In this document: positions 30,634-64,000 of the stretch, piece by piece
Numbering within the stretch: position 1 is the stretch's first letter
Layout of the letters: each line of letters starts with the position of its first letter
Assembly (NCBI GenBank): GCA_965230955.1
Contig: OZ246404.1
Location: forward strand, 97,184 to 161,183
DNA length: 64,000 bases
Direction: 5' to 3'
From: an uncultured Candidatus Saccharibacteria bacterium
GTDB taxonomy: Bacteria > Patescibacteriota > CALEFQ01
Notes under the pieces: generated by a model
What the model was told of the DNA's origin: nothing
Seen by the model: the letters and a program-made list of their open reading frames with translations, nothing else
Database searches by the model: none
Position numbers and translations under genes: made by a program

Positions 30634-30710
30634 GCACCCGTAGCTCATTTGGATAGAGCGTCGGTCTTCGGAACCGAAGGTAGCAGGTCCGAATCCTGCC
30701 GGGTGCACCA
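30634..30710 (+). tRNA. tRNA-Arg(TCG)
   Basis: GCACCCG TA GCTC ATTTGGATA GAGC G TCGGT CTTCGGA ACCGA AGGTA GCAGG TCCGAAT CCTGC CGGGTGC A CCA. Confidence 0.8.
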
Positions 30711-30730
30711 CTTTGCCGCTTTGGCGGCCA

Positions 30731-30806
30731 TGGGTGCATAGCTCAGTTGGTAGAGCAGATCCCTCTTAAGGATAAGGTCGCAGGTTCGAATCCTGCTGCA
30801 CCCACC
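30731..30806 (+). tRNA. tRNA-Lys(CTT)
   Basis: GGGTGCA TA GCTC AGTTGGTA GAGC A GATCC CTCTTAA GGATA AGGTC GCAGG TTCGAAT CCTGC TGCACCC A CCA. Confidence 0.8.
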
Positions 30807-30855
30807 AAAAAATGTATAGCCTGAATTTGCGCAATAGTGGTAAATAAACCGCCCG

Positions 30856-31533: not shown

Positions 31534-32514
31534 TCAATCCTGCTTGGCATCTTTTCGTTTTCGGTTGTGAAATTTATGATACGTTTCTTTCAGCTGATTA
31601 TTAGTAATATGGGTATAAATTTGGGTGGTAGTGATCGAAGCGTGGCCCAACATGGCCTGAACCGAGCGGATATCGGCGCCGTTTAGGAGTAAATCGGTCG
31701 CAAACGTGTGGCGCAGGGAATGGGTGGTGATATCTTTGTTTATGCCTGCGATTTGTGAGTACATTTTAATGATACGCTGAACACTTCTGGGGGTCAATCG
31801 CGGTTGATTCTCGACGGCGTCTTTTTTTGCCCGGCCGACGGATTTGGTGTCGTGTGAAATAAAAAGGGCATCAAAATTATCCTGCCGTCGTTCGAGATAT
31901 TTTTTGAGCGCATCTTTGGCGGCGGGGGAGAGGAAAACGACTCGGGCTTTATCGCCTTTGCCGGTGACGGTGAACTCCTCTTTGTTTAAATTGAGGCTGC
32001 GTCGATTGAGGTTGGCCAGTTCGCTGACGCGCAACCCGGCGGAGAAAAGCAATTCCAGAATCGCTTTATCGCGTAGCGTGGCCAGGTCGATTTCCGGCTT
32101 ATTCTTTGATTTGTATTTAGGATGTTGAAAAGGGGCGGCGAGTAATCTTTCCAGCTCTTCGTCATCAAGATAGCTGATCGAACGGCTTTCGGTTTTGGGT
32201 AATTCGATTTTTTCCGGAGCCAGAGTGGCGATATCTTGCTTTGCTAAGTACTTGAGAAAAGACCGCAGGGCGATAATATGGTAGGCCTGGGTGATTTTTT
32301 TGAGGGGGAGATTGGTGGCGGGATCCAGGTGGCGATTCAGCATCAGGCGATATTTTTTTACCAGCGGCAGGGTGATATCTTGGGGAGTTTTTACCTTCAT
32401 CCAATCCAAAAAACGGCGTAAGTAATGATCGTAGTTCTGGACCGTCTTTTGCGATCGGTTACGCTCTATTTCGCAATATTCCAGGAAATCGATGAGGAGG
32501 TCGGATAAATCCAT
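31534..32514 (-). CDS. xerD: tyrosine site-specific recombinase, XerC/XerD family
   Basis: HSLRHTFATDLLLNGADIRSVQAMLGHASITTTQIYTH (R-H-R-Y catalytic box); N-terminal SAM-like core-binding domain. Confidence 0.85.
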   Translation of the reverse strand: MDLSDLLIDFLEYCEIERNRSQKTVQNYDHYLRRFLDWMKVKTPQDITLPLVKKYRLMLNRHLDPATNLPLKKITQAYHIIALRSFLKYLAKQDIATLAPEKIELPKTESRSISYLDDEELERLLAAPFQHPKYKSKNKPEIDLATLRDKAILELLFSAGLRVSELANLNRRSLNLNKEEFTVTGKGDKARVVFLSPAAKDALKKYLERRQDNFDALFISHDTKSVGRAKKDAVENQPRLTPRSVQRIIKMYSQIAGINKDITTHSLRHTFATDLLLNGADIRSVQAMLGHASITTTQIYTHITNNQLKETYHKFHNRKRKDAKQD

Positions 32515-45327: not shown

Positions 45328-46512
45328 TTAGTAGATGAAACCTTTGACGCGACCGTTACTCGGACTAATGGTCCGAGTGCTGGTTTTGCCAAATCCGGCG
45401 TAGTTCATTTCAGAGACGACTGCCGAACCATCAGGATTGACTTTCTCAACGTAACCAACATGTCCCCAGCCACTCTCATTGGTAACCATGATAGCGCCCG
45501 CTTTTGGGGCACTACCGGTTGCTTTGCCTTGGGCCTTGGCATTGTTCAACCAGGTGCCGGCGTTTCCTCGCCAGGTAACGTCACCTCGTTTTTTAGCTAC
45601 ATAGTACGTACAGTAACCGGCAGGGAAACCGTTGTAACTGCCACCGCTAGTAATACTGCGACTGACATTCCGGCTGGTTGAAGCACTGGAAGATGTCCGG
45701 CTGTAGGAAGTTTTCGTGCTGGAGCGACTGGCGGAAGCGAGTCGGCGAGTCTGAGTGGTGGCTGGCTGTTCAACCGGTTTGTCGGGGAGCTGACCATTGA
45801 AAACCACAATCAATTGTCCGGGCTGGACTGTCCCGTCTTCCGGGAGATTATTTCCTTCGATAATTTTTTGGATATTAGTGGCTCCGTAACGTTGGGCAAT
45901 CTGGGACAGACTCTGGCCTTCGGCCACTTTGTGGATGGGGCTATTGGAACTGGGGATGCTGATTTTTTGTCCGGGCTTCACCATTTCATCCCATTTGGCG
46001 TCGGCCAGCAAAGTTTGCGGGCTGAGACCGAATTTTCGGGCGATGCTGGAAAGAGTTTCACCGGGCTGAACTGTATAAGTAAACATGGCGGCGGGGCGCT
46101 CTACCGTATAAGCGGTGGGCGCGGCTTCAACTTCGGGTGGAAGCACCGAGGCTTCGGTCATCGGATTGGTGTAAACAACGCTGGACATAGCGATACTTTC
46201 AGTATTGAGAGCGGCATTATCAACGGCTGTTTTGGATACGCTGGTCAAACTGGCGGTATCTTCGTGAATCAATTTTTTGGGATCGCCGGCTTTGACCACT
46301 TCCAATTGATCGGATCGGCTGGCAAAAAAACCAAACAAGGCACTGCTTTCATCGGTATTCAACGCGTTGGCGCTGACTGAATTGGCGTTGAAAATGGCGA
46401 CTCCGACACCCAAAACCAACAAGATAGCCGGAATAATGAAAACTTTAGGATTACTTTTCAGTGTAGCGAAAAATCCCCGGAAGAAATTTGGTAAATGAGG
46501 TGATTTCTTCAC
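45328..46512 (-). CDS. secreted LysM-LysM-CHAP peptidoglycan hydrolase
   Basis: Signal/TM; two LysM motifs (YTVQPGETLSSIARKFGLS; HKVAEGQSLSQIAQRYGAT); C-terminal CHAP (GYCTYYVAKKR ... GHVGYVEKV). Confidence 0.75.
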   Translation of the reverse strand: MKKSPHLPNFFRGFFATLKSNPKVFIIPAILLVLGVGVAIFNANSVSANALNTDESSALFGFFASRSDQLEVVKAGDPKKLIHEDTASLTSVSKTAVDNAALNTESIAMSSVVYTNPMTEASVLPPEVEAAPTAYTVERPAAMFTYTVQPGETLSSIARKFGLSPQTLLADAKWDEMVKPGQKISIPSSNSPIHKVAEGQSLSQIAQRYGATNIQKIIEGNNLPEDGTVQPGQLIVVFNGQLPDKPVEQPATTQTRRLASASRSSTKTSYSRTSSSASTSRNVSRSITSGGSYNGFPAGYCTYYVAKKRGDVTWRGNAGTWLNNAKAQGKATGSAPKAGAIMVTNESGWGHVGYVEKVNPDGSAVVSEMNYAGFGKTSTRTISPSNGRVKGFIY

Positions 46513-46912: not shown

Positions 46913-47650
46913 TTACTTCTGAATGAAGGTAACGATTTTGGGATCGTTGATGTTGAGCGTTCGTTCGCTGACAACACCGCGTCCCTTATAGTTCATTTCG
47001 CTGATTGTGACTTGATTGCCTTTCACTTCTTTCACGTAGGCGACGTGACCGTAAGAACTTTCACGGGTTTGAACGATTGATCCGGCCGCGGCGTATTCTT
47101 TGCCAACTTTGTGGCCATTGGCCGCAGCATTGCTACCCCAGGCTTTGGCGTTTCCGCGCCAGTCGACCCAGCCGGTTTGGCGGGCCGCCCAGTCGGTGCA
47201 ATAACCGGAGGCAAACGTGTTATTTCGGGTAGAACTGGTTGAACGAGCGGTGGAAGTGACCAAACGAGCACTAGACGCAATGCGTCGCGTGGCTGTCGTT
47301 GATTGCTTCGCCGCCGCTTCTTCAGCCGCGGTGTCGGTCGTGCGGGTGATCGCTTTGACTGTCAAAGCGGTCTGATCGCCGCTAGCGACTTTGGTCGCGG
47401 GCACGGTAGTGGTTGTCACGTTGACCGCCGAGGCGAAAGCCGTCGGGGTCGGCGTGATAGTGGCGGAGTTTTTGACGGTGACATCGTTGCCGATGTTTTT
47501 GACCGTCTGCTCATCCGCCAGCGCGGTGTGCGTGAAGGTAACGGTGACAACTAACGCCAGTAACAGTGTTAAGGTATGGCGCCAACTGTACCCGAAGAAA
47601 TTCTTTAATTTGGTAAGATCGTTTTGGTGTGTTTTTGAAAACTTCTTCAC
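46913..47650 (-). CDS. secreted CHAP-domain protein (Thr/Ala-rich linker), paralogue of the 45328 gene
   Basis: TM/signal; FASGYCTDWAARQTGW ... GHVAYVKEV CHAP pattern. Confidence 0.7.
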   Translation of the reverse strand: MKKFSKTHQNDLTKLKNFFGYSWRHTLTLLLALVVTVTFTHTALADEQTVKNIGNDVTVKNSATITPTPTAFASAVNVTTTTVPATKVASGDQTALTVKAITRTTDTAAEEAAAKQSTTATRRIASSARLVTSTARSTSSTRNNTFASGYCTDWAARQTGWVDWRGNAKAWGSNAAANGHKVGKEYAAAGSIVQTRESSYGHVAYVKEVKGNQVTISEMNYKGRGVVSERTLNINDPKIVTFIQK

Positions 47651-51465: not shown

Positions 51466-53043
51466 CGCTATCAGGTATACGAGAAACACGTAGATAAACA
51501 TCATCCCGAATACCCAAAGCTCACGACTGCGTTTGTCGAGGATGATAAATATTTCCGCGACGCCAAAGGCGAGTGACACCCAGAGCAAGTCGGAGCGCCG
51601 GAGCAGGATCGGGAAAAGCATAATCGCCGCAAAAGCCATCAAGGCAATGATCAGTTTGCCTTTTTTTAATCCCCAAACGGTCAAAACCGTGTAAGCCTGG
51701 CCGACTTTGTCGCCGGCGTAATCCTTCAGATCTTTGACGCTGGCCAGCAGGGTGGTGGCGGCGAAAACCAAGAGACTGATGGCCGGAGGCAGATTGATAA
51801 TCGTATTGTTGGCATTAAACATCAGGTAGCCGGCGACAAACATCAGGGCTCCGGTCGCGCCCATGGCCAGATTGGAGATGAATAGCCATTTTTTCAGGCG
51901 CAAGGGCGGAGTGGAATAAAGATAGCCGATGGCCAAGATGACCAAGAAAATAAAAAATACTTTGTACCCCAGCACAAAAGAACTGAAAAAAGTAATCAGT
52001 CCGGCGACGATAGACAGATTCACCATCTCGGCCGGAGAAATAATTCCGCGGGGGATCGGTCGGCCGGGATTGGTGACGCTATCGATCCGGGCGTCGGCCA
52101 CATCATTTAGGAAAACGCCGAAAAGCCAGGAAAACAAAATGGCGCTGGCGACCGCGATTAAGGAGAGGATAAATTGAGGCGTAAATATTTCGGCGTTGTT
52201 CAATCGAGTAAAGGCAAAAAATCCGCCGGCGCCGAAAAGAAAAATTTGCGTCAGGAGTCTGGTCGGCCGGACAGACGTCATCAAGGCGGCGAGCTTGGCG
52301 GGAGCGATCAGGCGATAGAAAATCAAAACTTGTATCAGTAATAGCGGAATGAAAATTAGCGCAATTATAATACTCGAATAAACATTGGGGTCCTCGTAGG
52401 AAACCAGCAAGGAGTCGCGGGTGTTTGTCAGCCAATTGAGAATTTCCAGTGTGGTGACCGACCAAACGCCCTTTTGCAGGGAAATGATAACCATGGAGAC
52501 CAGCGAAATTATCGCCGTCAGGGCGAAAGAAACTACATAAAAAATCGCGCCGGCTAAAATTGTTTTCCAAATTTTCCTGGTTTTCAGGGCGACAAAAAAC
52601 ATCATGGCGGCGATCAGTAGAATCAATTGGATCCGCGCGCCCCAGGTGAGGCTCAGCTGGGAGGAATCAATCAGGAAAGTGAAAAATTTTTGTCCGACAT
52701 TGCCGGTATCGACCAGCAGAGCGGGGACAAACCATTTTTTATCCGAGAAAAGGTCGATCAATGGCGGAATGAAAATGACCAGAAACCCGAGGAGAGTAAA
52801 AGGAGCCAGATTTTTCAGCGGTAACTTGGTGAAAACGAAAAGCAAAATAAAAAATGCCAACAAGGCATTGAGATAAAATAATGGCGAGACTAGCAAGAGC
52901 GCGGTATAATTGGGAATATCAAAAATCGGGCTGGAAAATCCTTCCAGGAAAATGCGAATGATTACCAGCGCCGCGATTGTTCCCAAAAAGCGGGGAAATG
53001 TCAGCTGGATGGAATCAATTTTGGCGATAATTTTAGCAAACAT
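51460..53043 (-). CDS. polytopic membrane protein with C-terminal UbiA-family prenyltransferase-like domain
   Basis: 12 or more TM helices; NDVADARID (UbiA Asp-rich motif) in the C-terminal third. Confidence 0.5.
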   Translation of the reverse strand: MFAKIIAKIDSIQLTFPRFLGTIAALVIIRIFLEGFSSPIFDIPNYTALLLVSPLFYLNALLAFFILLFVFTKLPLKNLAPFTLLGFLVIFIPPLIDLFSDKKWFVPALLVDTGNVGQKFFTFLIDSSQLSLTWGARIQLILLIAAMMFFVALKTRKIWKTILAGAIFYVVSFALTAIISLVSMVIISLQKGVWSVTTLEILNWLTNTRDSLLVSYEDPNVYSSIIIALIFIPLLLIQVLIFYRLIAPAKLAALMTSVRPTRLLTQIFLFGAGGFFAFTRLNNAEIFTPQFILSLIAVASAILFSWLFGVFLNDVADARIDSVTNPGRPIPRGIISPAEMVNLSIVAGLITFFSSFVLGYKVFFIFLVILAIGYLYSTPPLRLKKWLFISNLAMGATGALMFVAGYLMFNANNTIINLPPAISLLVFAATTLLASVKDLKDYAGDKVGQAYTVLTVWGLKKGKLIIALMAFAAIMLFPILLRRSDLLWVSLAFGVAEIFIILDKRSRELWVFGMMFIYVFLVYLIAF

Positions 53044-53112
53044 GCTTCAGAGAGTATATTATATGGAGCATAGTCGCGCGATTCGATTTCAATTTTAGCA
53101 CGGTTTAATCAG

Positions 53113-53955
53113 ATGTCGAAGGAATTGAGGCAAAAAGCCATCGAAAAGCTGGCCGGCGCCAATTTACGCCGATTGGAGTCGCTTGGGCAGAATTTTTTAA
53201 TTGATAAGGAAATGATTTCCAGAATATGTCAAGCAGTGTTGGATTCCAAGCCGGATGTCGTACTGGAAATCGGCCCGGGGCTCGGGGCGGTCACTTTTGC
53301 GCTAGCTCCTGCGCTAAAACGACTGGTTGCCGTGGAGTTGGATCGTGGTCTGGCCGCTGGTTTAGCCAAGGAAGGCGTCCAAAACCTGGAAGTGGTCCAA
53401 GGTGATATAATCAAGCAAGATCTGGCAGAATTAGGCTTATTTAAGCGTAAATACACCGCTTTTGGCAGTTTGCCGTTTAATATGGGTACGGCGATAATCC
53501 GGTATTTGCTGGAAAATGAAAACCCGCCGAAAAAGCTTTATGTGATACTGCAACAAGAAGTAATTGACCGAATTTTGGCTAAAGATGGGCAAGAAACGAT
53601 ACTTTCGTTGGCGGTCCGGTTTTTCGGCTCACCTCAGCAGCTTCTCCGCATACCTCGATCGGCCTATCAGCCGATTCCCCGCGTTGATACAGGGTTACTG
53701 GTGATAGATTGCTCTGCGCCGCCGTCGGAACCGGCTCTGCAGAAGCCATTTTTTTCGCTTATTAAAGCGGGATTTTCAGCGCGGCGGAAGTTTTTGAGCG
53801 CGAATTTAGCTGCAAAGCTGAAAATACCGCGAAAAACCGTCAATCAAGCCTTAAAAGAGCTTCCAATCGACCCCAAAATACGAGCCGAAGCCTTGTCTTA
53901 CGCCGATTGGCTGAAATTGGCGCGTAATTCGATATTTCACCGGAATACGGGGTGA
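53113..53955 (+). CDS. rsmA: 16S rRNA (adenine1518/1519-N6)-dimethyltransferase
   Basis: GQNFLIDKEMISRI ... VLEIGPGLGAVTFAL ... NLPFNMGT motifs. Confidence 0.85.
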   Translation: MSKELRQKAIEKLAGANLRRLESLGQNFLIDKEMISRICQAVLDSKPDVVLEIGPGLGAVTFALAPALKRLVAVELDRGLAAGLAKEGVQNLEVVQGDIIKQDLAELGLFKRKYTAFGSLPFNMGTAIIRYLLENENPPKKLYVILQQEVIDRILAKDGQETILSLAVRFFGSPQQLLRIPRSAYQPIPRVDTGLLVIDCSAPPSEPALQKPFFSLIKAGFSARRKFLSANLAAKLKIPRKTVNQALKELPIDPKIRAEALSYADWLKLARNSIFHRNTG

Positions 53956-54065
53956 AAATACGTGCTAAAAATACCGGTAAATTGTGTGGAAAAGGCGAGT
54001 TAGGCACAGTTGCGGTTTATTGCCGATTACTTTATAATTAGGGGGATTCTTACCGAAATAAAAAC

Positions 54066-55196
54066 ATGGTAAAGAAAGTTTGTTTTAGTCATGCTTCGAC
54101 ATCGAAGCGTAACCGAAGTTGTTTAAATTTGGCGAGTTTTTCTGCGTGGCGGGATCGTCATCCCCGCCTTTTTAATTCGTTACTGGCGGTTTTCGTGGTG
54201 TTGATTGTCGGGGTGACATTGATTTGGCAGCAACCATCAATCGCCAAAAAACTGGCCAGTACCGGACTGGACGATTATTTCAAACAAGACGTGCTTGATT
54301 CCCAAAAAGACGACGCCGATCGCGACGGCTTATCGGATGCCAAGGAAGCGGAGCTGAAAACCGATTCCGCCAAGCCGGATAGCGATGGCGATGGTCTGCT
54401 TGATGGTGAGGAAGTGAATACCTACAAAACAAATCCTTTGGCGGCCGATACCGACGGCGATAAATTTTCCGATGCCACCGAGGTTCTGACCGGGCATGAT
54501 CCCAATCGTGTTTCCTCGGCCACTGATTCTACCGCCAGCTCGAATAAATCTACTGCCAAAGAAGTCAGCTCTGATAATCTCGAATCAATCAGCCAATTAC
54601 TTAACGGCGATAGCGCTTCCAGTGAATTAAATCTGGATGATTTGAATCTGGATAATTTGACTGATGTTTCCAGCGCTTTTGGCACCGGCAATACGGCTGA
54701 AATTGTCGTGGTTGATTCGGATATAAAAATAATCGAAGTCCCGGAAAACGAAGCCAAGGCCAAGCTTGAATCTTACCTGGCTGAAATCGGTGATTTAATG
54801 ATGGAAGTTTTCAGCGATGAATTCAAAGATCCGCAGGCCTCGCAGAAATTTTTGGAGGCTGTTATTTCCAGCGGAAATTTTGAGAAACTTGAACAAACAA
54901 TCAAGAAAGCTCAGCTTTTCAGCGACCGGGTGGTGCAGATAGCCGTCCCCGCGCAGGGCAAGGAATTTCACAAGCTTCTGCTGAAAACGTTTCTCGAGCT
55001 TCAGGCCGTGGCCAAAAGCATGCAGCAAATGCAGAGCGATAATTTGACCAGTTTGGTGGTATTGGATCAGGTCAGCAAGCTTGAAACCGATCTGGCTGAA
55101 TTTCAAGCTGCATTCAATCTGCTTTCGACACGCTACGAATTTGGATATCAACTCGAAACTCCGGTCACTACGGCGACGGATACGAGTAGCGACTAA
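54066..55196 (+). CDS. membrane-anchored protein with Asp-rich Ca-binding-like repeats and coiled coil (first gene of the T4SS-like operon)
   Basis: TM LLAVFVVLIVGVTLIW; DADRDGLSDAKE, DSDGDGLLDGEE and DTDGDKFSDATE repeats. Confidence 0.5.
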   Translation: MVKKVCFSHASTSKRNRSCLNLASFSAWRDRHPRLFNSLLAVFVVLIVGVTLIWQQPSIAKKLASTGLDDYFKQDVLDSQKDDADRDGLSDAKEAELKTDSAKPDSDGDGLLDGEEVNTYKTNPLAADTDGDKFSDATEVLTGHDPNRVSSATDSTASSNKSTAKEVSSDNLESISQLLNGDSASSELNLDDLNLDNLTDVSSAFGTGNTAEIVVVDSDIKIIEVPENEAKAKLESYLAEIGDLMMEVFSDEFKDPQASQKFLEAVISSGNFEKLEQTIKKAQLFSDRVVQIAVPAQGKEFHKLLLKTFLELQAVAKSMQQMQSDNLTSLVVLDQVSKLETDLAEFQAAFNLLSTRYEFGYQLETPVTTATDTSSD

Positions 55197-55207
55197 CTTT
55201 TCTTTTC

Positions 55208-56068
55208 ATGTTAAACGGGTGGAAAAAATTGGGCGGTTTGGTGTTGGTCATCATTATGGTGGCCGGTTTAGGTTTGAGCGCCCGTCCGACCGGCGCGGCG
55301 TGGTCGCAGATTTGGAACGATATCGTCCAGCCGGCACTGCAAGTTTTCGTCCATCAGGAAATTCATGACATTATTCCCGATATCGCCAAGCGTATCGCCA
55401 TGGAGCGCTGGCAGAAATTTGTCATGAAAACGGTCGCCAAAAAGGGCGGCTATATCTGGAATTACGGCGAGTATCTTTACGGCTCCGGCAATAGCGCCGC
55501 CTCAAAATACTGGCGCGCGTTTTTGCAGAATTGCGCCAATATCGATCCGACAATCAGTTTGAATGTTCAGTTTAGCGCGGTTGAACAGGGCGAATATGAT
55601 TGGTGTCCGGTGCGGATAAATGTTCGGGGCGTAAATATTCAGGAAAATATAAACCTGTCTAACAATTTCGGCTGGGAGGACTTCAAAGACGCGGCGGCGA
55701 ACAATAGCTATAAACAGTATCAGCAATTATCGTCGAATGTTGAAAAGGCGCGCCAAGACACCCAGCTGGTCAAATTTATGGAAGCGATTTCCTCTGGGAA
55801 TAAACCGGCGACGGAAGAAGTCGATAATAGCCCCGTCGAAGGGACTACCGGACCGCCCTCGCCGTCCGATATTGCGGAGCGCGAGCGGGTCAAAATTCCG
55901 GTTCAGTCTTTCACGAATATGCTCAGTGCCGCTACCGGCGGGGTAGTCCAAGCGACTGCCAATCAGAAATCAATTGTAGCCTCGGCGCTTACTTATATGG
56001 TTCTGAATCAGGTGACCGACTGGACGCTGGACAAATTCGGCGGTGAGTACGGCGATTACTTTCAATAG
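55208..56068 (+). CDS. hypothetical secreted protein
   Basis: Signal peptide LVLVIIMVAGLGLSARPTGAAW. Confidence 0.5.
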   Translation: MLNGWKKLGGLVLVIIMVAGLGLSARPTGAAWSQIWNDIVQPALQVFVHQEIHDIIPDIAKRIAMERWQKFVMKTVAKKGGYIWNYGEYLYGSGNSAASKYWRAFLQNCANIDPTISLNVQFSAVEQGEYDWCPVRINVRGVNIQENINLSNNFGWEDFKDAAANNSYKQYQQLSSNVEKARQDTQLVKFMEAISSGNKPATEEVDNSPVEGTTGPPSPSDIAERERVKIPVQSFTNMLSAATGGVVQATANQKSIVASALTYMVLNQVTDWTLDKFGGEYGDYFQ

Positions 56069-56107
56069 ATAGGATTCAAAAATAACCCCCATACTCAACG
56101 AAGTTGA

Positions 56108-58324
56108 GTGTGGAGGACGGGTGAAATAAAAATGTCCCCAGCAGGACAAAAATTTTGGAGCACGGTGCTGAAACAGGGAAAATATCTTGCCTGGCTCTTT
56201 GTGTATGATCCGTTGCTGGTTCGGATTTATCGCTGGTTTAAGCGACCCCGTCATCCCCAAACCCGCCGGACGGTTTTTGTTTCCTTGATTACTTTGGGAC
56301 TGGTTTTGTTGGCTATTCCCCACACAGTAGCAGCAAATTGGTTTAGTAACGCGCTGGGTGATGTGGTTATGTTCTTTTATACGGTGGCGGCGGAGATTCT
56401 TTCGTTGGCAGGAATCGCTTTTAACAAAGTCGTGGAAGGCGATCTCTTTAATCAAATTATTTCTTCTCCGGCTGTCGGAATCGGATGGACCGCTACTCGC
56501 GATATTTGTAATTTAGTTTTTGTCTTGATTTTGTTGGGGATCGGTTTCGCGACTATCCTACGAGTGCCGACCTACCATATCAAAAAACTGATTATCCCCT
56601 TCATCGTGGCGCTTTTATTGATCAATTTCAGCAAGCTTATTTGCGGAGTGGTCACGGATTTTTGTCATGTGATCATGGCTTCATTCAACGCGGCTATGCA
56701 AGGCGGAGAATCTGGCAACTATTCCGGAGCTATTGCTAACGCGGTGGGGGTAGGAACATGGCTGCGACCCGGGGCTGATTTTAAGGGAGAACTAAACGAT
56801 GTGGCTAATTTAGCCATAGTGACGATGTTTATGTTTGCGCTGGCTTTTGCATTTTTATTGCTGGCGGCCTTACTGGTTTCGCGGTGGATTACTTTGCTGG
56901 TTTTGACTATTTTTTCCCCGTTGATTTATGCCGCCCAAATTTTACCGACTACCAAGGGGTTTGCCAAAAAATGGTGGCAACAGTTTTTGCAAAATGCTTT
57001 TTACGGCCCGGTGGCGGTGTTTATGGTTTATTTGGCGATTTCGATCGTGATGGGTATGTCTAAGCAACTTGCCGATTCACAGGCCGCCGCAGGAGCGGTT
57101 GATCGAAATAACCTCACCTGGGCGACACTGGTTGCGCTGTTAATCGCCTGTATCTTGCTATATAAGGCCGTGACTTTTTCTAAAAATCTCGGTATCGCCG
57201 GTGCCGGTGCGATAATCAGTACCGGGACGAAGTGGGGCAAGAGTCTGGGCTCGCCGTTGACTGATCGGGTGAGAGCGGCTTGGGGTGCTCGGAAATCTGC
57301 TATACAGTCGGCTCGGAAAGAGTCCGGCGAAAGATGGGGAACCGGTCGTCTGGCTCGGGCAACTATGTTAGATAGTGGCGCCAGAGCAAAATCGCGCGCG
57401 GCCCAGGAATCTCTGCGGGCCAGTCGCGAGAAACAAGCTTCGGAAGCGATGCGTCCGGGTGATAAGGGTGATGAAGAATTGCAGGCTTTACTAAAGGGCG
57501 GATCCAAACAGCAAAAATTGGCGGCGGGTAATGAGTTGGCCAAGAGGGGTAAATTGGATCGAGCCAGTTATGATAGTCTTAAAAACATGGGCGGCATCAG
57601 CGCAGTTGGCTTGGCCGGTCTCAAAGACACAATGAGTAGTACTGACCCCATGGCTGAAATCGATCGTAATAAGTTGAGAAATGGCGATGTGGCAGAAAAA
57701 GAAAAACTCGATAGTTTAATGAAAAGAGCCGACTTGAAAAAACTGAGCACTGAAGCGTTGACTAATACTTCGGGAAATAATGACGGCAATGTGGAATTAC
57801 TAAACTCGATTGCTCGGGTGAGAGGAAAGGATTCGTTAACAGACATTCACAAGAATATGACCAGTGAGGCTGACAAAAGGGCATTCGGTGATACATTGAA
57901 GGGAATCTCGGCCAAAGGATTGGCTGCTGGTGGAAATAGATCGGAATTTATGAATATTGCGGGAGCTTCGTTGGCAATTAATAAGGAATTAGCGTTAGAT
58001 AGCAGCGGCAATTTGAAGCTTTCAGGATCTGAATTAGCCGAGTTGGCTCAGAAGGCAGACAGTAAAGATTTGAGTATCGCCTTGACCCGACCTGGGGCAA
58101 TGCCGGCTCTGAATAATTCCCAAAATTATGCTATGTCGAAGGTTTTGTCGCCTGGTAAATTAAAGAACATGCAGGATCATATGGGAAGTGGTTTTGATGA
58201 TTTTATGAGAATTCAGCGAGCGGCCAGTTCTGGCGCATTCTCCAATGGAAATATCACACCTTCTGATGCTGCTCGGTTGTCTTCGATTAATAGTGATCCG
58301 ATATTGAGAAGTTACGGATTATAA
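56108..58324 (+). CDS. large polytopic membrane protein, VirB6/TrbL-like candidate, with long hydrophilic C-terminal domain
   Basis: Eight or more TM helices in the first ~330 aa, then a soluble Lys/Ala/Ser-rich domain; the assignment rests on topology and context, not on a sequence motif. Confidence 0.45.
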   Translation: MWRTGEIKMSPAGQKFWSTVLKQGKYLAWLFVYDPLLVRIYRWFKRPRHPQTRRTVFVSLITLGLVLLAIPHTVAANWFSNALGDVVMFFYTVAAEILSLAGIAFNKVVEGDLFNQIISSPAVGIGWTATRDICNLVFVLILLGIGFATILRVPTYHIKKLIIPFIVALLLINFSKLICGVVTDFCHVIMASFNAAMQGGESGNYSGAIANAVGVGTWLRPGADFKGELNDVANLAIVTMFMFALAFAFLLLAALLVSRWITLLVLTIFSPLIYAAQILPTTKGFAKKWWQQFLQNAFYGPVAVFMVYLAISIVMGMSKQLADSQAAAGAVDRNNLTWATLVALLIACILLYKAVTFSKNLGIAGAGAIISTGTKWGKSLGSPLTDRVRAAWGARKSAIQSARKESGERWGTGRLARATMLDSGARAKSRAAQESLRASREKQASEAMRPGDKGDEELQALLKGGSKQQKLAAGNELAKRGKLDRASYDSLKNMGGISAVGLAGLKDTMSSTDPMAEIDRNKLRNGDVAEKEKLDSLMKRADLKKLSTEALTNTSGNNDGNVELLNSIARVRGKDSLTDIHKNMTSEADKRAFGDTLKGISAKGLAAGGNRSEFMNIAGASLAINKELALDSSGNLKLSGSELAELAQKADSKDLSIALTRPGAMPALNNSQNYAMSKVLSPGKLKNMQDHMGSGFDDFMRIQRAASSGAFSNGNITPSDAARLSSINSDPILRSYGL

Positions 58325-58327
58325 TTT

Positions 58328-59206
58328 TTGGCTATGATGGATATTCTACAATTTCTAACAATCTGCCCTCCAGAAATAAAAGCATTTTTGTTTTCTGACA
58401 AAGTTAGCCAATCCATAGTGTCTTGGGTTGAAAAATATCGTTTTAATGAAAATGAACGTGATCAATTGGTGGATTTGGCGCGCGATGTTTTGGTGGGATT
58501 GACTGCTGTTGATAATTTGCCGGGTAGATTCAAGGCCATTTGTATTCGGCATCCTGATAGTAGAGCTCCATTAGAAGCTGAATTCAAGGAGAAATTGATT
58601 GATCCTAACTTATCTTATTTAAATAAGACCGAAGCAGATGTGCAAAAATTCAAGGCTGATAATGATTTGCCTGAAATAGTTACTTTTGATGTCCCCAAAA
58701 AGCCAGCAGCAGTTCCGGCGAAGCCGGCTGTCATGGCGCAGGTTGTTTCTCACCGTCCGGTCCCAAACACTTCCGACATCCGCCGTCCGGTCAAGCGTAT
58801 TGTCCCGCCCGCCACTCCGGTCAAACCGATTGCTTCTGTACCGGTACCGATGAAAGAAGAAAAACCGAAGCCGGAGCAATTTCAATTACGCACGGTGGAA
58901 GACCTGATAAATGTCCCGGCCATCGCTTTGGCCGGTGAGCCCGATGATGAGAAAAAACTGGTGGGACGTTTCAAGCAAGAGATTCAGGATATCGCTAATT
59001 ATTCCGGAGCGACCAGGGCGGACATTACTGCCGGATGGAAAAAGAGCCAGATCTACCATACATATATAGAGATGGGTAATGACAGTATTCAGCAGGGCAA
59101 ACCGATAGGCGATGTCACTGCCTTCCGAAAGACTGCCGGGAAACCGTATCTGACCGAGAATCAGTTTCACGCAGTATCTGAAATTAGTCGGTTGTTATTG
59201 AGATAA
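58328..59206 (+). CDS. hypothetical protein (Pro/Val-rich middle region)
   Basis: 292 aa; no motif. Confidence 0.45.
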   Translation: MAMMDILQFLTICPPEIKAFLFSDKVSQSIVSWVEKYRFNENERDQLVDLARDVLVGLTAVDNLPGRFKAICIRHPDSRAPLEAEFKEKLIDPNLSYLNKTEADVQKFKADNDLPEIVTFDVPKKPAAVPAKPAVMAQVVSHRPVPNTSDIRRPVKRIVPPATPVKPIASVPVPMKEEKPKPEQFQLRTVEDLINVPAIALAGEPDDEKKLVGRFKQEIQDIANYSGATRADITAGWKKSQIYHTYIEMGNDSIQQGKPIGDVTAFRKTAGKPYLTENQFHAVSEISRLLLR

Positions 59207-59312
59207 AATTTAAAGTCAAAAGCTTAAAATTCAAAAGAGTTTTAAAGCTTAACGATAAAAGTACTTTAAATTTTCACTTTGAATTTCTTTTAAATTTTCA
59301 TTTTTAGAACTT
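59207..59312. repeat. AT-rich imperfect palindrome between T4SS-like genes
   Basis: aaatttaaagtcaaaagcttaaaattcaaaagag ... cactttgaatttcttttaaattttcatttt. Confidence 0.55.
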
Positions 59313-59324
59313 TATATTTTACGT

Positions 59325-59846
59325 ATGCAGTATTCCGTGCCACAATTTATCGATGTTCAGGACAAGATTATCGGGCCGATGACAATCACCCAGTTTCTTT
59401 ATATTCTGGCCGGAGCCGGGACTTTGTTTGTTTTTTGGATTATCTCGCCGTCAATTCAGGTATTCCTGATCCCGGCCGTCCCGACACTGGGGCTTTTCGC
59501 CGCTTTGGCTTTCGCCAAAGTGAATGGCCGGCAGTTTTCCTCTTTTTTGAAATCCGCGATTCATTTCGTCCTGCGCCCGAAAGTGCGTTTATGGCGCCGG
59601 GAATTTGAGATCCGGGATGTGCGGACGGATCTCCGCTCGGCCAAAGCGCCCACACCGGCGGAAACGGTGGTCGGGAAACATGTTTCGGACAGCCGGTTGC
59701 GCCATTTATCGATCGTGCTGGATAATGAACACGAAGCGATAGAAGAAATGTCGGAAGCGGAAGTGGCGGAGGAAAAGCGCGACGCGATGGGTATGACAGC
59801 GGAAGAGCGCGAAAAAAAACTCGGTGAATTATTGGGTAAAAAATAA
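59325..59846 (+). CDS. PrgI-family / VirB3-like small membrane protein
   Basis: QFIDVQDKIIGPMTITQFLYILAG followed by two TM helices, as in the Gram-positive PrgI family (from memory). Confidence 0.5.
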   Translation: MQYSVPQFIDVQDKIIGPMTITQFLYILAGAGTLFVFWIISPSIQVFLIPAVPTLGLFAALAFAKVNGRQFSSFLKSAIHFVLRPKVRLWRREFEIRDVRTDLRSAKAPTPAETVVGKHVSDSRLRHLSIVLDNEHEAIEEMSEAEVAEEKRDAMGMTAEEREKKLGELLGKK

Positions 59847-59879
59847 TTTAATTTCTTTTCTTTTATTTCATCAATCTCT

Positions 59880-60656
59880 ATGGCTAAAAATAATCAGCCG
59901 CCAAAGGAAGACCCGGAACTCCAAAAATCGGTCGAGACGATGCATTCCGAAAAGCTTAATCCGAAAAAAACCGGACAGAGCACCCAGCAATATTTGGACG
60001 TGGAAGAAATTCGCGACGGCGTCATGGTCCTGCGCGACGGGGGAATGCGGGCGCTGGTCATGGTTTCGTCCATGAATTTCGCGCTCAAATCAACGGAAGA
60101 ACAAGAGGCGATAATCTATTCGTACCAGAGCTTTTTGAATTCATTGGAGTTTCCGATTCAAATCGTGGTGCAATCGCGCCAGTTGGATATTGACGCCTAT
60201 CTGGATAAATTGCGCAAAATGGAATCCGAACAGACTTCCGAACTCCTGCGGATTCAGACGGCGGAATATGTCGAATACGTCACGCAACTGGTGGAACTGA
60301 GCCATATCATGAGCAAAAGTTTTTATATCGTCGTGTCTTACTCCCCGGCGGAAGGCAAAAAAGAAAGCTGGCTGGATAAAGTTTTCAATCCGACCAAAGC
60401 GGTCGTTCATAAGGAAACCGATTTCAAACGCTACCGTGATTTACTGATGCAGCGGGTGGACCATATCGCCACCGGTTTACAGGGGGTCGGTTTGCGCATC
60501 GCTTTGCTCGAGACGCAGGAATTGATCGAACTGCTTTATAATACTTATAATCCGGCTACTTTTCAGCAGGAGACTTTGTCCGATGTCAATAAGCTTGATC
60601 TTTCCTCCGGCGATTTTATCCCCGAATCGGAAAAACAAGCCGCGCCGGAAGAATGA
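59880..60656 (+). CDS. hypothetical protein resembling the N-terminal region of VirB4/TrbE-type ATPases
   Basis: YLDVEEIRDGVMVLRDGGMRALVMVSS...SRQLDIDAYL pattern; Pro/Glu-rich C-terminal end; separated from the ATPase gene by an AT-palindrome. Confidence 0.4.
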   Translation: MAKNNQPPKEDPELQKSVETMHSEKLNPKKTGQSTQQYLDVEEIRDGVMVLRDGGMRALVMVSSMNFALKSTEEQEAIIYSYQSFLNSLEFPIQIVVQSRQLDIDAYLDKLRKMESEQTSELLRIQTAEYVEYVTQLVELSHIMSKSFYIVVSYSPAEGKKESWLDKVFNPTKAVVHKETDFKRYRDLLMQRVDHIATGLQGVGLRIALLETQELIELLYNTYNPATFQQETLSDVNKLDLSSGDFIPESEKQAAPEE

Positions 60657-60661
60657 TGAAT

Positions 60662-60745
60662 AAAATACAGAATGCAAAATTCAGAATGCAGCATTATAAG
60701 GATAAAATTTTGCATTTTGAATTCTGAATTTTGAATTTTAAACTT
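60662..60745. repeat. AT-rich palindrome (cagaatgcaaaattcagaatgca ... tgcattttgaattctgaattttg)
   Basis: Read from sequence. Confidence 0.55.
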
Positions 60746-60751
60746 AGTTAT

Positions 60752-62587
60752 ATGGCCAATATTGGACCCAAGAAAATTTCAAAAGAAGATTTAGCTCGGC
60801 GCGAAGCGATTCTCGAGGCGGAGCGCGTTTATCGTAAAGGCTTGGCCACGGTCAAGGATATTATCGCGCCTTCGGCGATGCAGGTGACGCCAAGTTACTT
60901 GCTGATCGGTGATCGGTACGCCCGGACGCTGTTTGTTTCCATTTATCCCCGGTTTTTACAGACCAGCTGGTTTTCTCCCATTGTCAATATGAATCAGACG
61001 ATGGATGTCTCGATGTTTCTTTATGCCGTCGATACTGAAATTCTATTGAAGAAATTGCGCAACAAGGTCGGGCAGATTCAGACTTCCATCATGATGAATG
61101 AAGAAAAAGGCGAAGTCCGTGATCCGGTGCTCGATACCGCTTTTCACGACGTGGAAGACCTGCGCGATAAATTGCAGCAGGGTACGGAAAAACTTTTCCG
61201 GTTCGCTCTCTATGTCACCGTCTATGGCCGGACAAAAAAGGAACTGGATGAATCGACCGAGCAGATTGAATCGGTCTTGAGCACGAAAATGGTGTATTCC
61301 AAACACTGCATGTTGCAAATGGAAGAGGGTTTTGCTTCCACTCTGCCGCTCGGCAACGATGAAATTGATATCGTGACCAATCTCAATACGGCGCCGCTTT
61401 CGACTACTTTCCCCTTTGTCTCGAATGAGCTGACTTCCAACGACGGAATTCTCTACGGCATCAATCGGCACAACAACAGCTTGATTCTTTTCGACCGTTT
61501 CAGTCTTGAGAACGCCAACATGGTTGTTTTCGCCAAATCCGGCGCCGGAAAAAGCTATACGACCAAGCTGGAAATTCTCCGCTCGCTGATGATGGGGACG
61601 GACGTGATCGTGATTGACCCGGAAAATGAATATAAGTATTTGAGCGACGCGGTGGGCGGCAGTTATTTGGATATTTCGCTCAATTCCGATAATCGTATCA
61701 ACCCCTTTGATTTGCCGAAATCTCACGGCGAGGAAAATACCGGCGATATCTTGCGTTCGGCCACAGTGGCCATTATCGGCTTGATGAATTTGATGCTGGG
61801 ACAATTGACGCCCGAGGAAGATTCGATCATGGACACGGCCATCGGGCAGGCCTACGCCAAAAAGGATATCACCGCTCAGTCCGATTTGACTAAAGTCGAA
61901 GTACCGACCATGCAGGATCTGGAAGAAATTTTGCAAAACATGGAAGGCGGCGAAAATTTGGCTCTGCGCCTTCAGAAATATACTCAAGGAACTTTTTCCG
62001 GTGTCTTCAATCAGCCGACCAATATCAATATGGATAATCAGTTTGTCGTCTTCAGTATACGCGATCTGGAAGACGAGATGCGCCCGATCGGCATGTATGT
62101 CATTCTCAATTATATTTGGAATATTGTCCGCGCCAAATTGAAAAAACGCATGCTGGTGGTGGATGAAGCCTGGTGGATGATGCAGTACGAAGACTCGGCC
62201 AAATTTTTGTTCGGCCTGGCCAAGCGCGCCCGCAAATATTATCTGGGCGTCACGACCATCAGCCAAGACGTGGCGGATTTCCTGCATTCCGATTACGGTA
62301 AAGCCATTGTGACCAACTCGTCCATCCAGATACTGCTGAAACAATCGCCGGCTTCGATCGATCTGATCGCCGATACTTTTCACCTGACTGACGGCGAAAA
62401 ATATTTACTGCTGGAAAGCGATGTCGGCGAGGGAATTTTCTTCGCCGGTCTCAAGCATGTAGCAATCAAGGTGGTGGCGTCATATACCGAAGATCAGATT
62501 ATCACCAGTGATCCGAGGCAGCTTCTGGAAATTCAGCAGGCCAAGCAGGAATTCGCGGCTTCGCAAGAAGAAAGCTCGGGGAAGTAA
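60752..62587 (+). CDS. VirB4/TrbE/CagE-family type IV secretion ATPase
   Basis: Walker A VFAKSGAGKSYTT; Walker B-like MLVVDEAWWMM; N-terminal PSYLLIGDRYARTLFVSIYP typical of VirB4 homologues; start at MANIGP (60752). Confidence 0.85.
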   Translation: MANIGPKKISKEDLARREAILEAERVYRKGLATVKDIIAPSAMQVTPSYLLIGDRYARTLFVSIYPRFLQTSWFSPIVNMNQTMDVSMFLYAVDTEILLKKLRNKVGQIQTSIMMNEEKGEVRDPVLDTAFHDVEDLRDKLQQGTEKLFRFALYVTVYGRTKKELDESTEQIESVLSTKMVYSKHCMLQMEEGFASTLPLGNDEIDIVTNLNTAPLSTTFPFVSNELTSNDGILYGINRHNNSLILFDRFSLENANMVVFAKSGAGKSYTTKLEILRSLMMGTDVIVIDPENEYKYLSDAVGGSYLDISLNSDNRINPFDLPKSHGEENTGDILRSATVAIIGLMNLMLGQLTPEEDSIMDTAIGQAYAKKDITAQSDLTKVEVPTMQDLEEILQNMEGGENLALRLQKYTQGTFSGVFNQPTNINMDNQFVVFSIRDLEDEMRPIGMYVILNYIWNIVRAKLKKRMLVVDEAWWMMQYEDSAKFLFGLAKRARKYYLGVTTISQDVADFLHSDYGKAIVTNSSIQILLKQSPASIDLIADTFHLTDGEKYLLLESDVGEGIFFAGLKHVAIKVVASYTEDQIITSDPRQLLEIQQAKQEFAASQEESSGK

Positions 62588-62606
62588 TAATATTATTTGA
62601 CCGCTT

Positions 62607-63029
62607 ATGGCCGAAGTCGAAGAACAATCCTCCGCCCAAAATGAACGCCGGATGGCGCAGAATTTGGCTGCCCAACGAAATAAATCCGATCCGGGTTTGC
62701 TGGAGCAAGCTTCGCCATCATTTCAAGCGGCCAGTCAGGTGGGTGGTGCGATCGGTCTGGGGGGAGCCGGTAAATCGGATGAGGAATACGGATTACTTGA
62801 TGCGATTTGGGAAGTGCTGGTGGTCTCCGTTTTAATCTGGTGGGGAGAAGGCTTGGCGACGCTTTCCGCTTGGTTGATGGAAGGACTGACTCCGAAAAAC
62901 ATCAAGCGTTTGATAGTCGTGGCCATGATGATAGCGCTAACGGTGGGGATGTTAATGCTGATTATCAGTGTGATTTCCGATCTGCCTTGGTCGATAGTTA
63001 ACTATATTACTTTAGGTGTTTTTCAATAA
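62607..63029 (+). CDS. small membrane protein (2 TM)
   Basis: WEVLVVSVLIWW and LIVVAMMIALTVGMLMLIISVI. Confidence 0.45.
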   Translation: MAEVEEQSSAQNERRMAQNLAAQRNKSDPGLLEQASPSFQAASQVGGAIGLGGAGKSDEEYGLLDAIWEVLVVSVLIWWGEGLATLSAWLMEGLTPKNIKRLIVVAMMIALTVGMLMLIISVISDLPWSIVNYITLGVFQ

Positions 63030-63044
63030 GAGTATTGCTGAATT

Positions 63045-64000
63045 ATGACGGGAAAAAACAAGCGACGACAATTGGTGTTAGTCATCAGTGCGGTAATGGC
63101 GGCGCTCTCGTTTTTTATTTTTGGTCTGCTCTCTCCGGTCTCGGCCGCCGAGACCTTTACCTATCCTAATTTCAGTATCGATTCGGAATCAGACGGTCAA
63201 GCTTGGGGTGTCGGCTCATTGGCCGGCGGCGCGATCGTGAACGGCGTCTTGACTTTTGAAGTCAAAGGTTTCCAGCAAGACGATCCCGATAATCCCAAAC
63301 GACAGGTTTTCGCAATGTATGACGCCGACCAGCCGTCGTTGTTCGGTAATCACGGATATTTCATGCATTTTCGGAAAAGAGCGGAAGTGCCGCAGGCCGG
63401 TTATCAGCCCGGGATACAGTTCAAAGGAGCGATCGATTGCGTCTGGTTTGAACCGGAAGCCAATTTTGCGACCGAGCCGTGGAATCCCAATACCAATTAC
63501 AAGTTTACCGTCGCGTGGGGGGGAGACGGAGCGACTCTGACCGTCGAGAACCAATCCGGCGGCAGTTGGTCGGGCAGTGTCGGTTATACTTTGCCTTTTT
63601 TGGCTCAGAGCCAGGAAATAGTTTTTGGCTCGGCCGGTCTGGCCAGCGGCGCTTCTTTTCCGGCCGAACCCGGACTGGAGTATTCCAATATTTCGCTGAC
63701 GGCCAATGATATCGACGATCCCGACGACCTGGACGGCTATCCGCCCTGCGAAGAAACTTTTACCGTTGATCCCGGGACGCGCGAAGACGAGCCGGGGACG
63801 GACGCGGGTGACCCTTATGACGACCCCAATAATCCTTACGATACTTGCGCGTGCGAGCCGATTGACGGTACCAATTCACGGCCCTGCGAAGATCCCAAGG
63901 CCGGCAAGGATGAATTTAAAATTACCGATCCGCCTTTTCGCATCAGCGTCAGCAAATACAAAGGCTTCCCGACCGGATTAAAAGTGGAGCCGCTTTGGAC
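63045..64000 (+). CDS. secreted hypothetical protein, partial (continues past window end)
   Basis: ATG 63045, signal peptide LVLVISAVMAALSFFIFGLLSPVSAAE; open frame to the window edge. Confidence 0.4.
   Translation, partial: MTGKNKRRQLVLVISAVMAALSFFIFGLLSPVSAAETFTYPNFSIDSESDGQAWGVGSLAGGAIVNGVLTFEVKGFQQDDPDNPKRQVFAMYDADQPSLFGNHGYFMHFRKRAEVPQAGYQPGIQFKGAIDCVWFEPEANFATEPWNPNTNYKFTVAWGGDGATLTVENQSGGSWSGSVGYTLPFLAQSQEIVFGSAGLASGASFPAEPGLEYSNISLTANDIDDPDDLDGYPPCEETFTVDPGTREDEPGTDAGDPYDDPNNPYDTCACEPIDGTNSRPCEDPKAGKDEFKITDPPFRISVSKYKGFPTGLKVEPLW

Follow-up and report, generated by a model that had tools for sequence, protein, structure and literature searches.

The window analysed here is a 64-kb stretch of DNA from a Patescibacteria bacterium, and its right-hand end holds a cluster of genes resembling those of type IV secretion systems (T4SSs). 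An earlier sequence-only reading had described nine tightly packed genes on the + strand between positions 54066 and 64000, and all nine open reading frames (ORFs), called here g1 to g9, were found exactly where it placed them, with gaps of 3-118 nt (in order 11, 39, 3, 118, 33, 95, 19 and 15 nt). Scans for promoters and terminators over 53000-64000 gave counts at chance level, and the group is called an operon because of its spacing and common strand only. The last gene runs off the window, and the cluster was followed for a further 9.3 kb in a metagenome contig (L001/L084) identical to the window tail, with 0 mismatches in 1,394 nt. The coordinates are collected in Table 1.

Table 1. Positions of the features of the cluster and of related genes (window numbering, unless a locus of the comparison set is named; aa, amino acids; TM, transmembrane).
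Feature	Position	Strand	Basis or remark
KsgA/RsmA rRNA dimethylase	53113..53955	+	PF00398 RrnaAD, precomputed; upstream boundary, housekeeping, not a T4SS part
g1, membrane-anchored or secreted protein, 376 aa	54066..55196	+	Three bacterial thrombospondin type-3 (TSP3, Ca-binding) repeats; first gene after KsgA
g2, 286 aa	55208..56068	+	N-terminal hydrophobic anchor or signal
g3, "extended" VirB6/TrbL-like polytopic membrane protein, 738 aa	56108..58324	+	Topology, TrbL matches
g4, cytoplasmic protein, 292 aa	58328..59206	+	No TM segment, two all-helical domains, no family
g5, PrgI/VirB3-like small membrane protein, 173 aa	59325..59846	+	PF12666
g6, TrsD/TraD-type protein, 258 aa	59880..60656	+	NCBIfam profiles, precomputed PF26593 TraC-like
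g7, VirB4 ATPase, CD1110/MPF_FATA type	60752..62587	+	NF045971, PF19044, PDB 4AG5
Walker A of VirB4, GAGKSYTT	61541..61564	+	Direct sequence reading
Walker B region of VirB4, VVDEAWWMM	62156..62182	+	Direct sequence reading
g8, 140 aa	62607..63029	+	Two TM helices (residues 61, 98), basic loop between
g9, 973 aa in full (window holds the start)	63045..64000	+	Signal peptide; first of three surface-protein paralogues
Pilin genes g12 and g13	L084 11092-12066 and 12110-12322		PF18895; 8.5-9.7 kb past VirB4, outside the window
g4-family members elsewhere	L088 4042-6228; L089 3097-5514; L090 6001-8049

The ATPase core, the VirB6-like protein and g4

Relatives of the locus were collected by scanning one genome per species, and the best 80 of 197 VirB4 loci were kept for comparison; the counts of loci given below refer to these 80. 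All of them, by record title or by synteny, and essentially all of the 197 come from metagenome-assembled genomes (MAGs) of Patescibacteria (candidate phyla radiation, CPR), with Saccharibacteria-labelled, Parcubacteria, Andersen-, Kerfeld-, Komeili-, Moran-, Falkow- and Berkelbacteria among the lineages. A few loci bear evidently wrong automatic labels. VirB4 is 57-86% identical across the set.

In the window, the VirB4 protein g7 matches the NF045971 model with 394 bits (cut-off 325) over profile positions 177-733 of 752, and PF19044 with E 4.8e-26. In the PDB it comes closest to Thermoanaerobacter VirB4 (4AG5, E 2e-47) and, next, to TrwK (E 3e-9); the same search returned no VirD4 or FtsK match, in agreement with the earlier call of a VirB4 and not of a FtsK/TraG-type coupling protein. 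A phmmer comparison with PrgJ of plasmid pCF10 gave E 1.4e-48. Database gene calls start the protein at ATG 60752 (611 aa), and TTG 60731 is an alternative start (618 aa). A 446-aa ORF that lies wholly antisense inside the gene (61043-62383, - strand) was treated as a shadow ORF.

The preceding gene, g6, matches the beginning of the same NF045971 model (positions 2-123, E 2.2e-7), as well as NF045975 (E 3.1e-9) and, below the family cut-off, the TrsD model NF041427 (E 1.9e-5). Since g6 covers positions 2-123 and g7 positions 177-733 of one 752-position model, the two together resemble a VirB4 split into two genes. By these profile alignments g6 appears to be the N-terminal region of VirB4 encoded as a separate protein, and g7 a VirB4 that lacks this N-terminus of ~175 positions. 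The small protein g5 matches PF12666 with 42.4 bits (cut-off 27) and TcpE with E 6.8e-4; it has two TM segments (residues 19 and 39) followed by a charged C-terminal tail of ~80 aa. PrgI stands directly upstream of TrsD, and TrsD directly upstream of VirB4. By tblastn, PrgI was found in 70 and TrsD in 75 of the 80 loci, always in the order PrgI-TrsD-VirB4 where it is detectable.

The product of g3 (719 aa in database gene calls) consists of a TM core of ~350 aa, with eight predicted TM segments in all, and a hydrophilic C-terminal half of ~380 aa. Its matches to PF04610 TrbL (E 4.5e-5, 23.8 bits, cut-off 25.9) and PF19597 TrbL_4 (E 1e-4) both fall just under the cut-offs. Of 31 orthologues, 9 matched TrbL (best E 1e-8), and the gene at the same position in L090 carries PF19590 TrbL_3. 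Homologues were detected by tblastn in 32 loci, and L029 is the only one of these in which they do not lie upstream of PrgI. A profile of the orthologues gave coiled-coil and low-complexity matches only when compared with the PDB. Thus, the VirB4, VirB4-N-terminal-like, PrgI, VirB6/TrbL-like and Ca-repeat calls of the sequence-only reading are all backed by profile matches, that of VirB6 just below the Pfam cut-off. Among the members that it had found unrecognisable, those at 55208 and 62607 (g2 and g8) could not be assigned, and that at 59880 is TrsD.

Between the VirB6-like protein and PrgI lies g4 (289 aa in database gene calls), in which no TM segment and no Pfam domain was found. Structure prediction of the members without a family succeeded in part, and for g4 it gave a confident AlphaFold model with a mean predicted local distance difference test (pLDDT) score of 78: two all-helical domains, at residues 1-110 and 180-289 and both above 87, are joined by a disordered Pro-rich linker. 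Comparison of this fold with the PDB by Foldseek gave no match (best E 1.7). The C-terminal ~115 aa (window 58862-59206) are strongly conserved. Homologues of g4 occur in 13 loci by tblastn and in 32 by hidden Markov model (HMM), the HMM matches lying on the + strand upstream of VirB4 and ending beside the PrgI match. When the C-terminal domain was searched as a profile against 1.84 billion representative proteins, 2,520 representative clusters were obtained at E<=1e-3, and in these members the domain always stands at the extreme C-terminus; a Pfam scan of ten full-length members found no domain in any of them. All three readable independent contexts have the order VirB6/TrbL_3-like protein, g4 family, PrgI and TrsD, followed by VirB4 where the contig reaches it. 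We regard this family, as far as could be checked, as a modest new point of the present analysis. Kinship of g2 or g4 with PrgD, PrgE, PrgG, PrgL, PrgM or PcfA of pCF10 was rejected, with hhalign probabilities <=0.3%.

Accessory genes, surface proteins and pilins

The repeats of g1 match PF18884 with E 4.6e-13 and carry the motifs DADRDG, DSDGDG and DTDGD at residues 83, 105 and 128. The protein has one N-terminal hydrophobic segment (residue 32) and a helical C-terminal half. Homologues were detected by tblastn in 7 loci, and in a related complete chromosome, L007, a TSP3 protein likewise stands directly after KsgA. The next gene, g2, gave no Pfam, NCBIfam or PHROG match, and in a set of 5.8 billion proteins no more than 12 close homologues of it were obtained (50-100% identity). 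It was found in 3 loci by tblastn and in 5 by HMM, always upstream of VirB6, and judged by these counts it appears as a small, lineage-restricted family. No VirB1-like (SLT/CHAP) or VirB8-like (NTF2) domain was recognised in g1-g13, the genes of the cluster and its continuation; a divergent VirB8 could be g2, whose AlphaFold model, built from the 12 homologues with a VirB8/NTF2 fold in view, was unusable (pLDDT 34). PHROGs scans of the unassigned proteins gave no match.

Directly after VirB4, g8 has a hydrophilic N-terminus of ~60 aa before its two helices. It showed no family match in Pfam or NCBIfam and no tblastn or HMM homologue in the 80 loci, and in the closest relative, L004, a 128-aa protein has the same topology and position; g8 is a fast-evolving two-TM protein. 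Its identification as a VirB2/TrbC pilin was considered and rejected: it has no PF18895 or PF04956 match at E<=1 and was not recruited by a four-round jackhmmer search seeded with the pilin domain of g12, so that only the two-helix topology is alike. The gene right after VirB4 differs by lineage, other lineages having one of two families at this place, neither of which is present in this genome. One of them, famA, is an N-terminally anchored protein of ~200 aa with a "FAERFGSFSN" motif (L012, L014-L017, L019, L021, L024, L028 and others). Its hhalign comparison with PrgL/VirB8 gave a weak in-register match (P 0.015, 99 columns). The other, famB, a multi-TM family marked by an "LKDLLD" motif, follows VirB4 in Moranbacteria-like loci (L018, L023, L025-L048); membership of g8 in this family was also rejected, as there is no HMM or jackhmmer link and no Pfam match.

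The sequence-only reading pictured a minimal VirB4+VirB6 system, and this picture does not hold, as the cluster continues into three large surface proteins and an array of VirB2-like pilins. Pilin genes were among the candidates that it named for the region past 64000, and they are there; VirD4 and a relaxase, named with them, were not found in the 9.3 kb. The surface proteins g9, g10 and g11 (973, 995 and 914 aa; window 63045-64000, continuing in L084 2338-11095) are encoded in tandem and are 32-38% mutually identical. Common to all three are a signal peptide, an N-terminal domain of unassigned fold, TSP3-like DxDxDG Ca-binding repeats and a C-terminal TM anchor. The third, g11, gave a PKD match with E 1.4e-5 and a TSP3 match with E 0.0057, and its start is probably GTG 8264 of L084, which restores the signal peptide. 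Relatives of the g9 type occur in about 15 of the 80 loci (tblastn), and a phmmer search of the PDB with g9 found no match. The three paralogues are candidates for adhesin-like proteins; a 2025 survey of the Patescibacteria system reported no adhesins (PMC12102498).

At least two VirB2-like pilins follow, g12 (324 aa) and g13 (321 aa), both with the T4SS_pilin domain PF18895, which g12 matches with 34.3 bits (cut-off 26.6). The pilins also match the pilin-like model NF045849, and each has a tail of ~200 aa that contains 24 cysteines. The combination of a pilin domain with a Cys-rich C-terminal tail (100-370 aa, 10-28 cysteines) was seen in ~20 of 50 pilin-bearing Patescibacteria loci, L014, L016, L024, L051, L059 and L068 among them. 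Moranbacteria-like loci have instead a short pilin and a protein with a double pilin domain, upstream of PrgI.

Surroundings and inheritance of the locus

Upstream of the cluster the window holds KsgA, UbiA and UvrD. Nine tRNAs lie in the window, and its GC content and skew are even. Neither dnaA nor a GC-skew switch is present in it, and therefore no replication origin lies within the window. Conjugation genes were sought by a Pfam scan of 30 of the larger window ORFs, and the downstream genes were assigned by Pfam and precomputed hits. In agreement with the sequence-only reading, no relaxase, VirD4 or other coupling protein, or VirB11 was found among these 30 ORFs; no search for oriT was made. 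The 9.3 kb downstream likewise show no relaxase or coupling protein among their called genes.

The complete chromosome L007, with a VirB4 that is 78% identical, shows the whole cluster between KsgA and RadA. The order there is a TSP3 protein, a g2-like protein, VirB6, a g4-family protein, PrgI, TrsD, VirB4, two proteins of ~1,056 aa and a pilin, and no mobility gene, relaxase or coupling protein was found in this interval. Because of the housekeeping flanks, the tRNAs, the even GC content and the same KsgA neighbour in L007, we conclude that the locus is a fixed chromosomal one, vertically inherited, and not a mobile element.

Several other genes of the window should be mentioned. Two CHAP-domain proteins are encoded on the opposite strand among housekeeping genes, 6.4-8.7 kb upstream of the cluster (45328-46512 and 46913-47650, both - strand), the first of them having also two LysM domains. 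They could be the wall hydrolases, with a VirB1-like function, that are otherwise missing from the cluster, and nothing ties them to it. A tyrosine recombinase of the Phage_integrase family (31534-32514, - strand), probably XerC/D-like, lies beside tRNA-Arg and tRNA-Lys (30634-30807), 22 kb from the T4SS genes and with housekeeping genes between, and no sign of an integrated element was seen around it. The housekeeping part of the window also contains three large FG-GAP/beta-propeller repeat proteins, likely surface proteins (8515-10770, 10881-12593 and 18989-20863), and two adjacent proteins of 420 and 333 aa (28206-29468 and 29508-30509), whose sole recognisable feature is an N-terminal zinc-ribbon domain.

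Place among type IV secretion systems and possible function

A T4SS of this kind has been described in the last years. Quinonero-Coronel et al. (2025, PMC12102498) found VirB4 in 2,417 of 3,035 Patescibacteria genomes; its sequences make up one monophyletic group inside MPF_FATA. The commonest neighbour of virB4 in their survey is TrsD, accompanied by PrgI/VirB3, VirB6 and arrays of VirB2-like pilins, and KsgA is among the enriched neighbours. A type IV coupling protein (T4CP) seldom adjoins virB4, VirB8 is hardly detectable, and a relaxase lies near only 15 of 2,474 Patescibacteria virB4 genes; neighbours of the comF/recG/radA kind are reported in class ABY1 (PMC12102498). In Southlakia epibionticum ML1, the homologous cluster SEML1_0006-0019, pilin array included, is largely essential for epibiotic growth according to transposon sequencing (Wang et al. 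2023, PMC10633639); most of the genes seen score as essential, and SEML1_0012 does not (PMC10633639). A 2025 review speculates that a pilus is a conduit for signals or uptake (PMC12857230).

The locus studied here shares with these systems a chromosomal position, a VirB4 of MPF_FATA ancestry and the lack of any relaxase or T4CP found nearby. With the Patescibacteria T4SS it also shares adjoining TrsD and PrgI/VirB3 genes, an extended VirB6-like protein, tandem PF18895 pilins and the KsgA neighbour. Moreover, an unannotated helical protein of large or medium size lies between VirB6 and PrgI in both this locus and S. epibionticum; the counterpart of g4 there, matched by position alone, is SEML1_0011, which is essential. 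There are also differences between the two. The pilins stand downstream of VirB4 here and upstream of VirB6 in S. epibionticum, and VirB4 is followed there by a lysozyme/peptidase (VirB1-like) pair, whereas here it is followed by a two-TM protein and three TSP3-repeat, TM-anchored proteins. The NTF2/VirB8-like protein SEML1_0012 of S. epibionticum has no recognised equivalent in our cluster. Furthermore, the pilins of 321-324 aa with a Cys-rich tail of ~200 aa contrast with those of S. epibionticum, which seem shorter (Pfam/DPAM ranges end at 99-185).

The relation to Gram-positive conjugation systems is visible in the core proteins. The VirB4 belongs to the same NCBIfam family, CD1110, as PrgJ of pCF10, and the PrgI family is shared as well; PrgF of pCF10, 75 aa long, has two helices and a pattern like that of pilins. 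The order of the VirB3-like, TrsD and VirB4 genes is that of traC-traD-traE and trsC-trsD-trsE in pIP501 and pGO1. Unlike pCF10 and pIP501, the locus is chromosomally fixed and not on a mobile element, and the sequence examined contains no relaxase, oriT-processing protein or VirD4-type coupling protein, nor a wall hydrolase of the PrgK/TraG type, a VirB8-like protein (PrgL/TraM) or an LPXTG adhesin (PrgB). It does have signal-peptide-bearing VirB2-like pilins, which are generally missing from Gram-positive systems. In having no dedicated adjacent coupling protein or relaxase, it resembles the T4SSs co-opted for non-conjugative purposes, namely the effector or toxin systems Bordetella Ptl and Brucella VirB and the DNA-uptake systems Helicobacter ComB and Sulfolobales Ced. 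Ptl, Brucella VirB and ComB are systems of diderm bacteria with VirB7/9/10 outer-membrane cores, and Ced is archaeal. The only sequence similarity to these systems is the generic one of VirB4 (CedB NF041017, 42 bits, cut-off 700; VirB4_CagE, 111 bits, cut-off 643); CedD scored 23.5 bits (cut-off 600), and further Ced or ComB components were not seen.

Taking all this together, we think that the region is, with high probability, a chromosomal, vertically inherited T4SS locus of a Patescibacteria bacterium, belonging to the Patescibacteria clade of the Gram-positive MPF_FATA class. It is a typical copy of the known system described in 2023-2025 and found in most Patescibacteria, and not a discovery. 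The sequence-only reading was right in proposing a relaxase-less, non-conjugative T4SS of Patescibacteria/CPR, as the relatives in CPR MAGs and the two published studies (PMC12102498, PMC10633639) agree with it, and it went too far in presenting the cluster as a candidate for something new. As to the mechanism, by analogy with other T4SSs, VirB4, TrsD and PrgI would supply the energy for pulling pilins out of the membrane and assembling them on VirB6 as a platform. From the R388 structure and studies of the Agrobacterium T-pilus, VirB4 is reported to dock on VirB3 and to drive the extraction of pilin, with the pilus growing on VirB6. The product may be a short pilus or conduit at the site of contact with the host bacterium, where the large Ca-repeat surface proteins would act as adhesins. 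In this way the machine may serve the host-dependent (epibiotic) lifestyle through exchange of proteins or other macromolecules, and not plasmid conjugation.

Several points weigh against this interpretation. VirD4 homologues are present in most Patescibacteria genomes, usually far from virB4 (PMC12102498), and our view covers the 64-kb window and 9.3 kb beyond it on a contig of ~1.14 Mb, so that a coupling protein or relaxase could lie elsewhere. Membership of the Patescibacteria clade is suggested by the nearest neighbours and not by a VirB4 tree, and the VirB6 call for g3 is slightly short of the Pfam threshold. The cluster has no recognised VirB8-like or VirB1-like gene, and the assembly model is incomplete without a wall-spanning part. 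Finally, no substrate, effector or signal was recognised in the sequence, which by itself does not show the function.

Three other explanations of the locus have to be weighed. One of them is a machine for importing DNA or macromolecules, like Helicobacter ComB or Sulfolobales Ced, which would feed a cell unable to make nucleotides. Import is the hypothesis preferred in the 2025 survey (PMC12102498), and the lack of a relaxase or T4CP nearby, the RadA that closes the cluster in L007, the comF/recG/radA neighbours in ABY1 and the weak similarity of VirB4 to CedB (E 4.4e-11) and CedD (E 1.9e-5) all fit it. However, 42 bits against a cut-off of 700 for CedB is generic VirB4 similarity and not membership, and in the cluster neither a DNA-binding component nor a nuclease was found. 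Moreover, S. epibionticum takes up DNA through ComEC, the deletion of which is viable, whereas its T4SS is essential (PMC12857230). The suggestion of DNA uptake made in the sequence-only reading thus finds no support in that organism, and we consider import rather unlikely. The same ATPase core could also do nothing more than build VirB2-type filaments and place adhesins, as an organelle for adhesion or pilus display through which nothing is transported. At least two Cys-tailed pilins and the three Ca-repeat proteins with a TM anchor account for over half of the locus, and pilin arrays are essential in S. epibionticum (PMC10633639). No effector-like or substrate-receptor gene was recognised, which would also suit such an organelle. 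A VirB6-like channel and a conserved g4 would, on the other hand, be superfluous for pilus assembly alone, a point tempered by the fact that VirB6 is required for T-pilus assembly in Agrobacterium. Moreover, experiments have assigned host adhesion in Saccharibacteria to type IV pili (PMC11623550; PMC12857230). These points are not decisive, and we doubt that adhesion or display is the whole function.

Much less probable still, and in our opinion hardly tenable, is a functional or decaying integrative and conjugative element (ICE) of Gram-positive type, with its relaxase, coupling protein and oriT located beyond the examined sequence. VirB4, PrgI, TrsD and VirB6 are indeed homologous to conjugation proteins of the pCF10, pIP501 and pGO1 type, ~3.7 kb of the downstream contig and the remaining genome lie outside our view, and the tyrosine recombinase mentioned above has tRNA genes beside it. 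Nevertheless, that recombinase is 22 kb off and separated by housekeeping genes, the GC content is uniform across the window, and the related L007 keeps the KsgA neighbour and the RadA end without mobility genes between them. The VirB4 identity of 57-86% across CPR lineages fits vertical descent, and the rarity of relaxases near Patescibacteria virB4 genes (15 of 2,474, PMC12102498) also speaks against an ICE.

Beyond the interpretation as a typical Patescibacteria T4SS, a more specific idea can be put forward, with considerable reserve. It would combine two propositions: that g4 is an unnamed, near-universal core subunit that replaces the coupling protein, and that the Cys-tailed pilins form a decorated, host-recognising pilus unlike those of other T4SSs. 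In such a scheme g4 might dock on the PrgI/TrsD/VirB4 complex, recruiting the substrate or gating the channel. We find it improbable that both propositions hold.

Few machines of CPR bacteria have been shown to be essential for their epibiotic life, and the T4SS of Patescibacteria is one of them. The present locus adds no new class to those already described. It is a well-resolved example of the system, with accessory genes unlike those of the lineage that has been studied experimentally, and in g4 it offers a concrete target for interaction modelling or for genetics in cultivated Saccharibacteria.

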